A stretch of 58,128 bases of DNA from a virus. The notes under the pieces are model-generated. The model was not told where the DNA came from, ran no database searches, and was given only the letters and a program-made list of their open reading frames with translations. The DNA lies in IMG/VR virus record IMGVR_UViG_3300014488_000003, positions 1 to 58,128 of that record. The stretch is one strand, 5' to 3'. The stretch's first letter is position 1. Each line of letters starts with the position of its first letter. Positions 5,176-58,128 of the stretch are shown one piece after another. The translations under genes and the position numbers were made by a program.

Positions 5176-7134
5176 GTGAGGGCCGTGATCCAGATCAGCC
5201 GGGTGGAGAACCGTATCCACTTGACGTCTCCGTATGACCCGTTGACGATCGCTCGCTGCAAGCGGGTGGCCGGGGCTAATTGGAGTAAGACCGCGTCGGC
5301 ATGGACGTTCCCGCTGACGATCGAGAGCTGCCTCCGGCTGCGCCAGGAGTTCGGAGGCGCGCTGAAAGTCCATGCCGGTCTCTCCGGGTGGTACCGGGAG
5401 GAAACTGGCCGGAGAAGCCAAATGAGCGCGCTCGCTGCGGGCCGGACCGCGAGCCCGGAACTGAAGGAATTGGGTAAGCGCTTTCCCGCTCTCCACGCGG
5501 CTGTGACGGCCGCGCGTCCCTATCAGGCATTCGGAGCCCAGTTCATTGTGGATGGCCGGAGCGTCCTGATTGCCGATGACCCTGGGCTGGGAAAGACCCT
5601 GGAAACCCTCGCGGGCGTGGTCGAGAGCGGCGTGCCGGGACCGTATCTGGTCGTGAGCCCGAAGACCGCTGCCACCACCGTCTGGCCCTATGAGATCCCG
5701 CGCTGGCTCCCTGGACACCAGGTGCTGCAGCTCCCTGAGGGGCGCGCCAAGCGCAACGCGCTCCTGAGCGGTCTGGCCGAGGTGGAGCGGCAGAACCGGG
5801 GTGGGGCACAGGGGTTCACCCTGGAGGAAACCTGGGTCAGCGTCCACCCCGAGGCGGTACTCACCAAGAGCTTCTGGGACTGCCCCGAGTGTGGCGAGCC
5901 GACCCCATACACGAGGAAGCCAACTAGCGTCCTAGGATGTGGCCACGATAAGCCAAAATCGATCAAGGTCCGGAATGAGCACACCTTCCCCCAGCTATTC
6001 GGCATCAAGTGGGGCGCGATCGTCGTTGACGAGAGTCACGAGAGCCTGGTTATGAAGTCGGGTACCCCGACCCAGCGTAGGCGTGGGATGGACCTGCTTC
6101 AACTTCGCGAGGGCGGGCTGCGCGTCGCGGTCTCTGGAACGCCGTGGAGAAGTAAGCCGCAACAGCTCTGGGGGACGCTCAACTGGCTTAACCCGAAGGT
6201 CTACTCCAGCAAGTGGCGCTGGATCGGCCAGTACTGGCGGCTGGGCGGGTATTCCGGTTATGAGGTTGGTGAGTTCATCCCCGAGCGCGAGCAGATGCTG
6301 TGGGACGAGCTTAGCTCCATCGTCCTTCGCCGGACCAAGGCCGAGGTGGCTGCCGACCTTCCGCCCAAGGCTTACGTGGGCACGCCGCTGGATCCGAGTG
6401 ACGAGACCTCGCCGGTGGGGATCTGGCTTCCCATGGATAGCAAGCAGAAGAAAGCTTACGAGCAGATGGCTCGGGAGAGCGCCGCAGCCATCGAGGGCGG
6501 TACGGTGAACGCCAATGGCGTCCTGGCTGAGCTCACGCGACTGGCTCAGTTCGCTTCCGCGTACGGCTCGGTGAGCACCGGTGACTTCATGCCGAACCCG
6601 CCCAGCAACAAGATGGATTGGGTCGAGCAGTTCCTGGAGGAGATGGGTTTCCCTGGCGAGCCGACCGGTAAGGTTGTGATTGTGTCGCGCTTTACTCGGT
6701 TGCTGAAAATGCTCTCTTTCGGGCTCACTGCCGCGCAGGGCGGGATGTCGTGCATGCTCACCGGAGATATCTCCGGAGCTAAGCGGAAGGCGATCATCGA
6801 CGCTTTCAACCAGCCGGTGGGGACAGACTCCCCGCACATCATGTTCCTTCAGGTAGAGGCCGGAGGAGTCGCGATCACGATTGACTCGGCCGACCACATG
6901 GTGTTGCTGGACGAGGCGGACCCGGATACCATGACCCAGGTGGAGGACCGGATTCACCGAGTGTCTAACCCCCGACCTGTGTTCTACTACTACCTTCGGT
7001 CACTCGGGACGGTGGACGTCGGCACGGCTGTGGTAAACGCTGAGCGCGCTGCTCGTGGTAGGCGACTGATGGACGAGCGTCGTGGAGTAGAGTACTTCCG
7101 CAGAGTTCTGGAGGCCGTGCATCCAAATGGGTGA
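5176..7134 (+). CDS. SNF2-family DNA helicase with inserted zinc ribbon
   Basis: Motif I LIADDPGLGKT, motif II VVDESH, C-terminal helicase motifs, and a CPECGEP...CGHD insertion. GTG 5185 is an alternative start. Confidence 0.9.
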   Translation: MRAVIQISRVENRIHLTSPYDPLTIARCKRVAGANWSKTASAWTFPLTIESCLRLRQEFGGALKVHAGLSGWYREETGRRSQMSALAAGRTASPELKELGKRFPALHAAVTAARPYQAFGAQFIVDGRSVLIADDPGLGKTLETLAGVVESGVPGPYLVVSPKTAATTVWPYEIPRWLPGHQVLQLPEGRAKRNALLSGLAEVERQNRGGAQGFTLEETWVSVHPEAVLTKSFWDCPECGEPTPYTRKPTSVLGCGHDKPKSIKVRNEHTFPQLFGIKWGAIVVDESHESLVMKSGTPTQRRRGMDLLQLREGGLRVAVSGTPWRSKPQQLWGTLNWLNPKVYSSKWRWIGQYWRLGGYSGYEVGEFIPEREQMLWDELSSIVLRRTKAEVAADLPPKAYVGTPLDPSDETSPVGIWLPMDSKQKKAYEQMARESAAAIEGGTVNANGVLAELTRLAQFASAYGSVSTGDFMPNPPSNKMDWVEQFLEEMGFPGEPTGKVVIVSRFTRLLKMLSFGLTAAQGGMSCMLTGDISGAKRKAIIDAFNQPVGTDSPHIMFLQVEAGGVAITIDSADHMVLLDEADPDTMTQVEDRIHRVSNPRPVFYYYLRSLGTVDVGTAVVNAERAARGRRLMDERRGVEYFRRVLEAVHPNG

Positions 7135-7369: not shown

Positions 7370-7831
7370 GTGCCCAAGAAGCCCCAGCCGGAGCCCGAGG
7401 CGACCGAGGAAGAGCGCGACTACACCGTCTACCTGGAGAAGGCTCCCACCGACCTCCAGAAGCGCTTCGCCGAGTGGCTGATGGATGAAGACATCGTCGG
7501 CTACGACCCCAGCAAGGCCAAGACCAAGCAGGAAGCCTTCGAAGAGGGCGTGCGGCTGGCGACGGCCATGCGGATGGTCTTCCAGGCCTCCCCGGAGAAC
7601 AGGGCCGCCAACGAGGAACGGAAGGCCGCGCGTGCCGATGAGTCCGAGGAGGAGCCCGCGAAGCCCGCTAAGAAGGCCGCTCCGGCGAAGAAGGCCGTAA
7701 AGAAGGCCGCTGCCCCGGCCGAAGAGGAAGAGCCCGAAGAGGAGGCTCCGGCACCCAAGAAGGCGGTGGCGAAGAAGGCTCCCGTGAAGAAGCGTCGTCC
7801 GGCCTCGGATGAGGATGAGGCTCCGTTCTAA
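7370..7831 (+). CDS. PAKKA-repeat (histone-like) protein with SSB-like acidic C-terminal tip
   Basis: GTG after GAGGAGAG. Contains PAKKAAPAKKAVKKAAAP repeats and ends in DEDEAPF. Confidence 0.8.
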   Translation: MPKKPQPEPEATEEERDYTVYLEKAPTDLQKRFAEWLMDEDIVGYDPSKAKTKQEAFEEGVRLATAMRMVFQASPENRAANEERKAARADESEEEPAKPAKKAAPAKKAVKKAAAPAEEEEPEEEAPAPKKAVAKKAPVKKRRPASDEDEAPF

Positions 7832-7866
7832 CCGGCGCACGACCCCCGCGAAGGTAAGAACGGAAT

Positions 7867-7894
7867 GGGGAGGGTAATTCGCGGTGCCCTCCCC
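7867..7894 (+). terminator. stem-loop (ggggaggg ... ccctcccc)
   Basis: 8-bp GC stem with a 12-nt loop, 36 nt after the stop at 7831. Confidence 0.5.
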
Positions 7895-7898
7895 AACT

Positions 7899-7982
7899 GG
7901 GGTGGTCGGCGTAATGAGGAGCTGGTACCGAATCCACAGCGATGTGGTTGCCCTTGCGCGGGTTCGAATCCCGTCCACCCCA
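7899..7982 (+). ncRNA. non-canonical tRNA-like element 1
   Basis: 7-bp acceptor stem GGGGTGG/CCACCCC, canonical T arm GCGGG-TTCGAAT-CCCGT and discriminator A. I could not fold a D arm or a 7-nt anticodon loop by hand. Internal hairpin CCACA-GCGA-TGTGG. Confidence 0.45.
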
Positions 7983-8127
7983 CTAGGGGAAGCATTGACA
8001 TTGATGCGACTCATCGTGAGTTCCTAGGACTAGCCGACCAGGAGACGTCCTCGGTCAAAAGCGATGAGGAGAAACGGGTGAAAGTCCCGTCCCCTTCCGA
8101 TAGGTGAGTGAGAGCACCGGAGGAGAC

Positions 8128-9276
8128 ATGATAGATCTTAGCAAGATTCCCGAGGTACGGACCTCGGAGCGACAGCTGTGGAAGCGCTGTCCTTGGGCCT
8201 GGAATCAGGCTTACCGTATGGGGATGCGGTCGAAGCGCGTAAGCGATCCATTGTGGTTTGGAGAGCTTGTCCACATTGCGCTCGGGGCTTGGTATGTGGG
8301 GCCAGGGCTCCGGCGCGGTCCCCACCCGGCCGAGACCTTCGAGAAGATCAGCGCCTCCGAAGAGATGCGCTACTTCAAGACCAAGGACGCCACCGAGGAC
8401 GAGCAGGCGAAGTACGCGGACATGCGGGCGCTCGGCGTGGTGATGCTGGAGGGATACGTTGACCTCTATGGGCGGGACGAATCCTGGCACATCATCAGCC
8501 CGGAGCAGACATTCTCCTTCAACATTCCCTTCCCAACGGACTGGGAATGGGAGGAGACGCGCGAGTTCTTGGCACGGTATGTGGGAACCTATGACTTAGT
8601 GTACCGAGACCTCATCAATAACTGGATCTGGCTGGGAGAGCACAAGACTGCCAAGGTCATACGCGTTGACCATCTTCCCCTCGATGATCAGGCCGGTCCC
8701 TACTTCGCGACCGCTAAGCAGTCGCTTCTCAAGCAGGGCTTGATTTCCCCGAAGGACCACTTCAAGGGCATTATGTATAACTTCCTACGAAAGGGCCTTC
8801 CTGACCCGAGGCCGGTGGATGCCCAGGGGTACGTCGTCAATAAGCCGACGAAGGAACACTACGTCGCTGCCATTGAGGCGTACCAGGCGGATGCTCTTAC
8901 TGGCAAGGAAAGCCTGGCAAAGCTCGCACAGGTGGCCGAGGCCCTAGGCATCACGGTCCTCGGAGAGCGCTCGAAGGTGCAGCCTGCCATTCTCTTCAAG
9001 CGACACCCGGTCCCCCGTACCCGCGCGGAGCAGGCGAGTCAGCTCCAGCGGATGCAGGATGACCTGACGGTGATGGAGTACCACCGGAGAGGTCTCCTGC
9101 CTATCACCAAGACTACTCACTACAGCTGTGCTCGATACTGCGACTTCTATGATGTATGTCGTCTGCACGAGGCTAGCGGCAACTGGAAGGAGCTACGTAA
9201 GGTTAGCTTCCGCGTGGAGGACCCGTATGCGGCCCACAGGAAGTCCACAGACGAGATTGGAACGTTTGAGCTATGA
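8128..9276 (+). CDS. PD-(D/E)XK Cas4/RecB-like exonuclease
   Basis: ATG after GGAGGAG. N-terminal Cys (RCPWAW) plus C-terminal C-x3-C-x5-C (SCARYCDFYDVC) is typical of Cas4/AddB-type Fe-S nucleases. Sits in the recombination module. Confidence 0.8.
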   Translation: MIDLSKIPEVRTSERQLWKRCPWAWNQAYRMGMRSKRVSDPLWFGELVHIALGAWYVGPGLRRGPHPAETFEKISASEEMRYFKTKDATEDEQAKYADMRALGVVMLEGYVDLYGRDESWHIISPEQTFSFNIPFPTDWEWEETREFLARYVGTYDLVYRDLINNWIWLGEHKTAKVIRVDHLPLDDQAGPYFATAKQSLLKQGLISPKDHFKGIMYNFLRKGLPDPRPVDAQGYVVNKPTKEHYVAAIEAYQADALTGKESLAKLAQVAEALGITVLGERSKVQPAILFKRHPVPRTRAEQASQLQRMQDDLTVMEYHRRGLLPITKTTHYSCARYCDFYDVCRLHEASGNWKELRKVSFRVEDPYAAHRKSTDEIGTFEL

Positions 9277-57849: not shown

Positions 57850-57934
57850 TCCCCCGGCCTCATTCCCCTGGTTATTGGAAACAACTGTTCTTTCGGCCGA
57901 AAGCAGCCTCCAGGTTCAATTCCTGGCGGGGGAG
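57850..57934 (+). ncRNA. non-canonical tRNA-like element 2
   Basis: 7-bp acceptor stem TCCCCCG/CGGGGGA, canonical T arm CCAGG-TTCAATT-CCTGG and discriminator G. Internal hairpin CTTTC-GGCC-GAAAG. No D arm or 7-nt anticodon loop found by hand. Confidence 0.45.
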
Positions 57935-57965: not shown

Positions 57966-58128
57966 GTGAGTGAGAGCGCGAGCAACGAAGAATTCGACCT
58001 CAAGAGCGTGAGTCCTGAGACGCTTTCTAAGATGGCGGCTAGGATTCGCAACCTCCTGACTCGCGCGGAGGACCCGCGCTTGGAGCACGAGGAGGAGCGC
58101 CAAGCCTTCTTCAACAAGGCTGAGGAGC
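57966..58128 (+). CDS. DUF2786-like protein, 5' part (continues at position 3 after the overlap)
   Basis: GTG 6 nt after GGAAGGAAAG. In frame with 3..1043 through the 123-bp overlap. Confidence 0.6.
   Translation, partial: MSESASNEEFDLKSVSPETLSKMAARIRNLLTRAEDPRLEHEEERQAFFNKAEE
58006..58128. repeat. second copy of the terminal overlap (identical to 1-123)
   Basis: Same comparison. The repeat lies inside a coding region. Confidence 0.9.

Follow-up and report, generated by a model that had tools for sequence, protein, structure and literature searches.

A conserved tRNA-like RNA element without an anticodon arm in a tailed phage genome

An 84-nt element at positions 7899-7982 of a phage genome, bearing the acceptor and T arms of a tRNA, is very probably a real RNA unit maintained by selection. 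By the defining tests it is not a tRNA, a tmRNA, a YrlA RNA or a mascRNA. Sequence comparison places it, with three further copies from other viral contigs (L182, L219 and L236), in a discrete family which we call type A. Our preferred reading, held with about as much confidence as doubt, is that the element is a non-decoding tRNA mimic derived from a tRNA gene and acting through the mechanism proposed below. The window, meaning the whole stretch of DNA analysed (58,128 nucleotides), is a ~58 kb tailed phage genome with a G+C content of 60% and nearly all of its genes on the + strand.

Anatomy of the element and tests against known RNA classes

Element positions are numbered such that adding 7898 gives the window coordinate. 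The whole conserved unit of 84 nt, a type-A tRNA-like RNA gene on the + strand (7899-7982), opens with the acceptor 5' strand GGGGTGG (7899-7905), which forms a perfect 7-bp helix with CCACCCC at 7975-7981 (positions 1-7 and 77-83) and is followed by U8 and N9. At the other end the acceptor 3' strand and the discriminator A (A7982, A84) together occupy 7975-7982, and CCA is not encoded. The T arm, GCGGG-TTCGAAT-CCCGT at 7958-7974 (60-76), has G.T as its first pair and is connected by a linker (55-59) to helix P2, in which GGCG at 7908-7911 (10-13) pairs with TGCC at 7949-7952 (51-54). In the comparative model P2 carries both a D-like hairpin and a second hairpin, H3, so that no arm is able to present an anticodon. 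The D-like hairpin, at 7914-7933 (16-35), would be built of A-U, U-A, tandem G.A/A.G, G-C and G-C pairs, a putative pairing of invariant sequence with no covariation. Its loop, AGCUGGUA (also given as AGNUGGUA), contains GG and presumably corresponds to the usual D-loop sequence of tRNA. A K-turn or box C/D reading of the tandem G.A pairs was dropped, the 3-nt bulge being absent. H3 (CCACA-GCGA-TGTGG; 7934-7947, 36-49) has a 5-bp stem and a tetraloop and replaces the anticodon arm.

Much of this had been anticipated in the original prediction. The acceptor helix, T arm and discriminator A that it described were all confirmed by direct reading, the hairpin H3 and the pairing of 10-13 with 51-54 are both present and both kept in the homologues, and the interior indeed lacks a tRNA fold, having neither a standard D arm nor any 5-bp stem around a 7-nt loop that contains U33.

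Two copies of the T-loop motif GGTTCRANTCC are present in the 58 kb, where 0.17 would be expected, and both are accompanied by a 7-bp helix at tRNA spacing. Measured against the features of a tRNA, the element has the 7-bp acceptor stem with an unpaired base 73 (GGGGTGG/CCACCCC plus A, with compensatory changes in homologues) and the 5-bp T stem with a 7-nt loop of the TTCRANY type; as modelled, the 12-bp acceptor/T stack and T loop would supply the structural prerequisites of a substrate for RNase P and CCA-adding enzymes. The D arm pairing 10-13 with 22-25 is absent, 10-13 pairing with 51-54 instead, and the only 3-bp option for a D stem uses position 24, which varies between C, T and A without compensation. 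The anticodon arm is likewise absent, since the arm at that position ends in a variable 4-nt loop; enumeration of interior 5-bp stems with a 7-nt loop containing U33 gave none in the window element, L219 or L182 and a candidate in L236 only. The suggestion that the length of the element would suit a class II tRNA falls with the missing anticodon arm.

ARAGORN at default settings reported neither a tRNA nor a tmRNA in the element, and Rfam gave no match to it at gathering thresholds. In E-value mode the Rfam tRNA model (RF00005) scored 25.8 bits against a cut-off of 29 (E = 0.003 in a 401-nt search), aligning to the acceptor and T arms only. In a scan of the whole window the same stretch was matched as the two ends of the tmRNA model (RF00023), at 24.3 bits against a cut-off of 47; tmRNA is defined by a tag frame with pseudoknots, G3.U70 and a score of at least 47 bits, and the element is only 84 nt long with G3-C70. 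For YrlA, defined by a match to RF02553 and an adjoining Ro60/TROVE gene, the model found nothing in the window at E <=10 locally or <=1 over its whole length, and the 57 window ORFs scanned, a subset of all ORFs, included no Ro60/TROVE, tRNA-related Pfam or integrase match. The idea of a Y-RNA-like module is thus not supported. The mascRNA-menRNA family (RF01684; at least 42.5 bits, at the 3' end of a long nuclear non-coding RNA) does not match the element, and the phage context rules out membership, leaving a likeness in design only. With lowered thresholds, introns or mitochondrial models ARAGORN made dozens of calls across the window, which were rejected; among the relaxed calls was a 'tRNA-His(gtg)' at 7908-7983 with a mismatched acceptor and a 3-bp anticodon stem, regarded as noise.

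Homologues and covariation

The three other type-A copies were found by DNA pattern scans of IMG/VR with interior motifs, and lie at 3147-3229 of L219, 12391-12474 of L182 (- strand) and 8541-8643 of L236. The four members represent three independent contexts, L182 and L219 being related phages and L236 and the window separate, with unrelated flanks and contigs ranging from 48 to 61% G+C. Similarity to L219, L182 and L236 sets in at the first acceptor base and stops at about the discriminator, the flanks showing none; directly 3' of the element the four read CTA, CGG, CAC and ATA. The interior of ~50 nt, TAGGCRTAATGAGGAGNTGGTACCGAATCC...TTGCCCTTGC, is nearly identical across members, even between contigs of 48% and 60% G+C, and its variation is mostly confined to the tetraloop and position 24, which vary freely. 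The D-like hairpin is invariant in all four except at loop position 24. The sequences thus compared indicate that the interior is constrained more strongly than the stems. The window element has each of the features that define type A, namely the acceptor and T arms, the interior TAATGAGGAGNTGGTACCGAATCC and helix P2.

The stems, for their part, vary in a compensated manner. Acceptor helices take the forms GGGGTGG/CCACCCC, GGGAAGA/TCTTCCC and CACTTGG/CCAAGTG, with changes on both sides at six of the seven pairs, and that of L219 has a 1-nt bulge. All cells of the T arm are paired, its third pair being G-C, A-U, A-U and U-A in the four members. In P2, where 93.8% of cells are paired (one is not), G11-C53 becomes A-U in L236 and G13.U51 becomes A-U in L182. 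The H3 stem is kept while its tetraloop varies (GCGA, ATGA, GAAA), and L236 has a different H3 stem with two double changes. For the tRNA-like model as a whole, 96% of cells in the four-member alignment are paired and ten pairs have changed on both sides, a number reached by none of 500 shuffles; control alignments slid out of register pair in only 40-51% of cells. The compensatory changes fall in the acceptor, T, P2 and H3 stems, and with so few members (n = 4) covarying pairs are scarce or absent for helix P2 and the D-like hairpin. Several of the G.U pairs (60:76 and 13:51) would be C.A mismatches on the other strand, so that the RNA is read from the + strand. A rod-like consensus produced by RNAalifold was rejected; it consumes the T arm and loses its pairs exactly at the variable columns of the four-member alignment.

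Thermodynamics alone does not pick out the tRNA-like fold. The window element has a minimum free energy of -35.4 kcal/mol (z = -1.56) in a structure that disrupts the T arm, the tRNA-like comparative fold being worse at -29.4 kcal/mol; for L182 the two are about equal. The z-score of only -1.56 and the Rfam score under its cut-off are the points in favour of a chance resemblance in G+C-rich DNA, to which we assign a negligible probability, because it is contradicted by the compensatory changes in homologues and by conservation that begins and ends where the tRNA-like unit does.

A covariance model of the family, R1, scores 107.7 bits on the window element, 106 on L182, 100.5 on L219 and 80.5 on L236, the next-best score being 32.8 (no more than 33 on true tRNAs and other tRNA-like elements in the ~0.9 Mb searched). 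As R1 was built from these same four sequences the scores are partly circular, and the independent evidence is the finding of the other three by pattern scan. Two scans of 185,579 GTDB species genomes with the interior motifs yielded no true copy; two matches lacking T arm or acceptor were set aside as chance or coding sequence. GenBank phages contain no homologue, only weak T-arm matches to tRNA-His, tRNA-Glu and similar genes. The contig L006 has AATCCA..ATGTGG in common with the window and was rejected, since it shows no type-A alignment and no R1 match at E <=1.

A further reading makes the element an attP core or a piece of a tRNA gene, a remnant of integration into the host copy, whose 5' strand matches by chance. 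Phage attachment sites frequently reproduce a tRNA gene's 3' end, and one weak blastn match does lie within an SSV attachment site. This reading is extremely unlikely: the 5' strand covaries with the 3' strand, contradicting a chance match, no integrase was seen among the 57 ORFs scanned (a subset of all ORFs), and the interior motifs, the part of the element searched for in the 185,579 GTDB genomes, have no true match there.

The original prediction also entertained a degenerate or pseudo tRNA. A decaying, functionless pseudogene, possibly of a former tRNA-His, would explain the missing D and anticodon arms and the lack of the element in cultured relatives (see below). Its 3' half is weakly similar to phage tRNA-His (E ~0.7), its T arm is the same as that of the tRNA-His of Streptomyces phage Kenrey, and it is His(gtg), albeit with poor stems, that relaxed ARAGORN proposes. 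Neutral decay, on the other hand, would hardly keep the interior invariant, compensate changes in the T stem or leave perfect 7-bp acceptors in three unrelated versions, and positions 41-43 of the putative anticodon stem vary without compensation, which places the constraint on H3 rather than on an anticodon arm. Given these compensatory changes, the near-invariant interior and the unrelated contexts, we consider a pseudogene very improbable.

Slightly less improbable, though still a poor prospect, is an unusual decoding tRNA, or an aminoacylated RNA serving as amino-acid donor outside the ribosome. The acceptor, the T arm and the D-loop-like GG are intact, and the L182 and L219 copies sit within clusters of true tRNA genes. 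The H3 region of L236, moreover, can be drawn as TTGGG-CTTCATG-CCTGG with a UCA triplet. Against this, the loop there is of 4 nt and variable in the window, L219 and L182, the family has no conserved 7-nt loop with U33, G3.U70 is absent, and the identity elements of acceptor and discriminator are not conserved. The discriminator base is A, A, A and U in the four members and the acceptor sequence likewise differs; this freedom to vary argues against a specific aminoacylation identity.

Several features of these loci may be recorded in their own right. In its alternative drawing the L236 member (8541-8643) has U33 as well as the UCA triplet, with U at position 37, and an extra 4-bp GNRA hairpin before the T arm resembles a long variable arm. 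The L236 member may represent a decoding or an ancestral form. The clusters of L182 (12290-12940, - strand) and L219 (2600-3550) are tight, and their true tRNAs (Gly in L182 and Asn in L219) are accompanied by several tRNA-shaped genes of non-canonical form; two of the latter, one on each contig, are homologous. A partner protein shared among the type-A loci was sought and none found; the only overlaps are one protein common to L182 and L219, which are related, and a distant resemblance of SNF2 helicases in L182 and the window.

Genomic setting and the slot upstream of the exonuclease gene

The genes adjoining the element are all on the + strand: an SNF2 helicase gene (5176-7134), an ORF for a Lys/Ala-rich protein (7370-7831) and an ORF for a PD-(D/E)XK (Cas4-like) exonuclease, which opens at 8104, probably starts at ATG 8128 after GGAGG and ends with a stop at 9276. 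The element lies, as originally described, between the last two, in a gap of 272 nt. Elsewhere the window encodes an AAA_24 (RecA-like) protein, a DnaE-type polymerase, a primase-polymerase and siphovirus structural genes. A gene of the DUF2786 family runs across the window ends (57966-58128, resuming at 3-1043), so that the window is a complete genome, circularly permuted or terminally joined. Scans for promoters and terminators around the element found none, and a search of the window for antisense targets of the element interior gave matches only at the rate of shuffled queries, with none standing out.

The leader of the exonuclease gene has peculiarities of its own. Ten nucleotides 3' of the element is a hairpin, GCATTG-ACAT-TGATGC (7992-8007), kept with another loop (ATGT) in the relative L002. 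Further on, the stretch 8030-8116 contains a T-arm-like hairpin, CGGG-TGAAAGT-CCCG, whose counterpart in L002 is GCGGG-TTAAAGT-CCCGC, and gives a weak match to the Rfam Tymo_tRNA-like model (19.1 bits against a cut-off of 40). A 12-mer, GTGAGTGAGAGC (or SSGAGTGAGAGC), is repeated at the starts of several early genes or shortly ahead of them, with exact copies at 8104-8115 and 57966-57977 and variants at 1580, 2317 and 57631. Its count at up to two mismatches (8, compared with 6.9 by chance) is not above chance; it is noteworthy for the two exact copies and for its conservation across phages, being kept before the exonuclease and DUF2786 genes of the relatives L002, L003, L162 and L163. It could be a shared leader or translation-start element.

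The exonuclease has hundreds of relatives on soil contigs of 56-60 kb. A strict scan of up to 700 nt upstream of these genes, requiring all seven acceptor pairs, all five T-stem pairs and the T-loop motif, found tRNA-like elements on the gene strand in 13 of 40 relatives with at least 45% exonuclease identity and on the opposite strand in none; below 45% identity the figures were 4 and 2 of 81. A relaxed scan (6/7 acceptor and 4/5 T pairs) was abandoned in favour of the strict one, as its 36 loci were matched by similar numbers (27 and 33) on reversed and shuffled sequence. Among the nearest relatives (exonuclease 74-87% identical) different tRNA-like types stand between conserved flanks. In L162 (87%) there are two elements in tandem, one of which, with a 51-nt anticodon-loop insert, scores 39.3 bits under the tRNA model; L163 (78%) has another element type, L002 (74%) a type of 82 nt and, at 67% identity, L003 a 72-nt near-tRNA without U33. 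Folding of 18 slot elements under a fixed acceptor and T arm gave 13 with a 3-4-nt loop at the anticodon position, and most of those have an ordinary D arm. To judge from these sequences, the slot behaves as an exchangeable cassette. Gene order is the same in two cultured relatives at ~44% identity, Microbacterium phage Hiddenleaf and Arthrobacter phage Wollypog, but these have no room for the element, which is therefore dispensable for this phage type.

Larger inserts are also seen in the wider set. The elements at L162 185-301, L018 1969-2081 and L111 26-147 have different acceptors and a common anticodon-loop insert of ~50 nt, CCAAGGGAATC...CAACCCTCTGAG, whose inner helix covaries (CAC/GTG versus CGGA/TCCG) and which has no Rfam match; it is a candidate for a separate RNA domain. 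In more distant relatives, tRNA-shaped genes of 100-116 nt with large inserts at the anticodon position, apparently related to one another by eye, occur downstream of true tRNA-Met genes (L066 1863-1969, L146 350-451, L147 464-575, L153 440-555).

The window itself has a second anticodon-less tRNA-like element on the + strand, at 57864-57934 (71 nt), or with an alternative 5' strand from 57850 (85 nt). The shorter reading, with acceptor TCCCCTG/CGGGGGA, is that chosen by both Rfam and relaxed ARAGORN. The T arm is CCAGG-TTCAATT-CCTGG, and a constrained fold places GAAA and GGCC tetraloops at the D and anticodon positions. In Rfam the element comes closest to mascRNA-menRNA, with 24.4 bits against the cut-off of 42.5. 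A search for its homologues found none, and a single 18-mer match, in a coding region of a low-G+C contig, was dismissed as chance. The element first reported here as having the same span is thus real and of the same design, but its longer reading is of 85 nt and it is not homologous to the first, the type-A model giving no match.

Immediately 5' of the type-A element, 3 nt before it on the + strand, is a G+C-rich hairpin at 7866-7895 with arms TGGGGAGGGTA and TGCCCTCCCCA on either side of a loop. The 50 nt upstream of the element fold at -21.7 kcal/mol (z = -3.8; RNAfold), and of 19 related elements 9 have a stable hairpin (z < -2) ending 0-7 nt upstream of them. A hairpin motif of another kind, GTGCCGG-N-GGGGTTAG-N-CCGGTGCTT, is found directly 5' of tRNA-like elements in L002 (~2060-2087), L003 (~2284-2311) and L118 (upstream of 944), and is unlike the GGGGAGGG hairpin type of the window, L010, L014 and L016.

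This arrangement raises the question of whether the element is a purely cis-acting processing signal ('tRNA punctuation'), its fold attracting RNase P and 3' enzymes that separate the mRNAs and the freed RNA having no function. The element is intergenic, on the gene strand and without promoter or terminator; the predicted RNase P site is preceded, at a distance of 3 nt, by a strong hairpin, and relatives repeatedly have hairpins too; no particular acceptor sequence is maintained; and the slot holds many interchangeable tRNA-shaped elements. Such a signal, however, needs no 50-nt interior nearly identical across unrelated phages of differing G+C, and in the tRNA clusters of L182 and L219 the true tRNAs already supply processing sites. 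The near-invariant interior argues against an exclusively cis-acting role, which we regard as doubtful while taking it seriously.

Proposed role and comparison with known systems

A tRNA mimic or RNase P/Z processing signal, one of the possibilities raised at the outset, remains on sequence grounds the best reading. As we envisage the non-decoding mimic, the element would be co-transcribed with the early + strand genes, having no promoter or terminator of its own. Host RNase P would cut at G7899, leaving the upstream Lys/Ala-rich mRNA to end in the hairpin at 7866-7895, and after 3' trimming behind A7982 the host would add CCA; excision would also trim the neighbouring mRNAs. The freed RNA of ~84-87 nt would retain the acceptor/T-arm stack and probably a D-loop/T-loop elbow, and could not read codons. 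It may then act in trans through its tRNA body and near-invariant D-like domain by occupying a tRNA-binding protein, candidates being a tRNA-processing factor and a defence or toxin of the host directed at tRNA. A decoy role against such defences appears attractive because the slot seems to turn over like an arms-race cassette.

The presence of tRNA genes in phages is usually explained by codon supply and, more recently, by escape from anticodon nucleases. Neither is possible for a gene that keeps the tRNA body and discards the anticodon, yet selection is clear, and it points to a use of the tRNA shape itself, as decoy, processing handle or protein ligand. Standard tRNA finders miss such genes, which will therefore be under-counted. 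The type-A family is small, sharply defined and easy to synthesise, and the wider set of slot elements amounts to a natural variant series of tetraloop-capped arms and two conserved insert domains. More tentatively, and with less expectation of being right than for the type-A element alone, the soil actinophage-like viruses may harbour a widespread, undescribed class of anticodon-less tRNA mimics, the anticodon loop being replaced by a tetraloop or structured insert. These would be swapped as cassettes among closely related phages and serve both as decoys against tRNA-directed immunity or toxins and as RNase P-dependent modules forming mRNA ends, type A being one specific inhibitor. Full-text literature searches found no description of phage tRNA-like genes without an anticodon; one large survey only mentions 'tRNA or tRNA-like' candidates in IMG/VR.

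By analogy of design, the closest known systems are mascRNA with the MALAT1 3' end, the tRNA-like domain of tmRNA, YrlA and the herpesvirus tRNA-like RNAs. With the canonical tRNA (RF00005) the element shares the 7-bp acceptor, the 5-bp T stem, the TTCGAAT loop, the base at position 73, the D-loop-like AGCUGGUA and residence in phage tRNA clusters; unlike it, the element has neither a D stem 10-13/22-25 nor an anticodon arm, and its 84 nt include a helix P2 carrying two hairpins. In the tRNA-like domain of tmRNA (RF00023), too, only the top half (acceptor and T arm) resembles a tRNA, an anticodon is lacking and GGGG opens the sequence, but the element lacks the mRNA-like frame, the pseudoknots and the G3.U70 alanine identity pair. 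The tRNA-like RNAs of murine gammaherpesvirus 68 are processed by host tRNA enzymes and CCA-tailed without being aminoacylated, and their function is debated. They are likewise virus-encoded and tRNA-shaped, but belong to a eukaryotic virus, are made by RNA polymerase III with microRNA hairpins and have no sequence relation to the phage element.

In M. smegmatis the YrlA RNA, whose acceptor-like stem is of 7 bp, undergoes RNase P cleavage and CCA addition (PMC4201824, Chen et al. 2014). Both the YrlA Y RNAs (RF02553) and the phage element are non-coding mimics of the D and T arms of tRNA, whereas YrlA has a Ro60-binding stem and a gene beside Ro60 (TROVE), and the phage window has neither a YrlA match nor TROVE among the scanned ORFs.

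The vertebrate mascRNA (RF01684) and the phage element both have an acceptor and T arm with a stunted stem at the anticodon position, and both are non-decoding, although mascRNA is eukaryotic, nuclear and not homologous to the phage element. In MALAT1, RNase P excises mascRNA and so makes the 3' end of the upstream RNA, which is shielded by a structure immediately upstream of the cleavage site. The G+C-rich hairpin 3 nt before the predicted cut gives the phage an arrangement that may be likened to this, with a plain hairpin in place of the MALAT1 triple helix and with processing that is predicted rather than observed. Were the tentative wider class borne out, its phage modules could be seen, by analogy, as the bacterial-virus counterpart of the MALAT1-mascRNA system.
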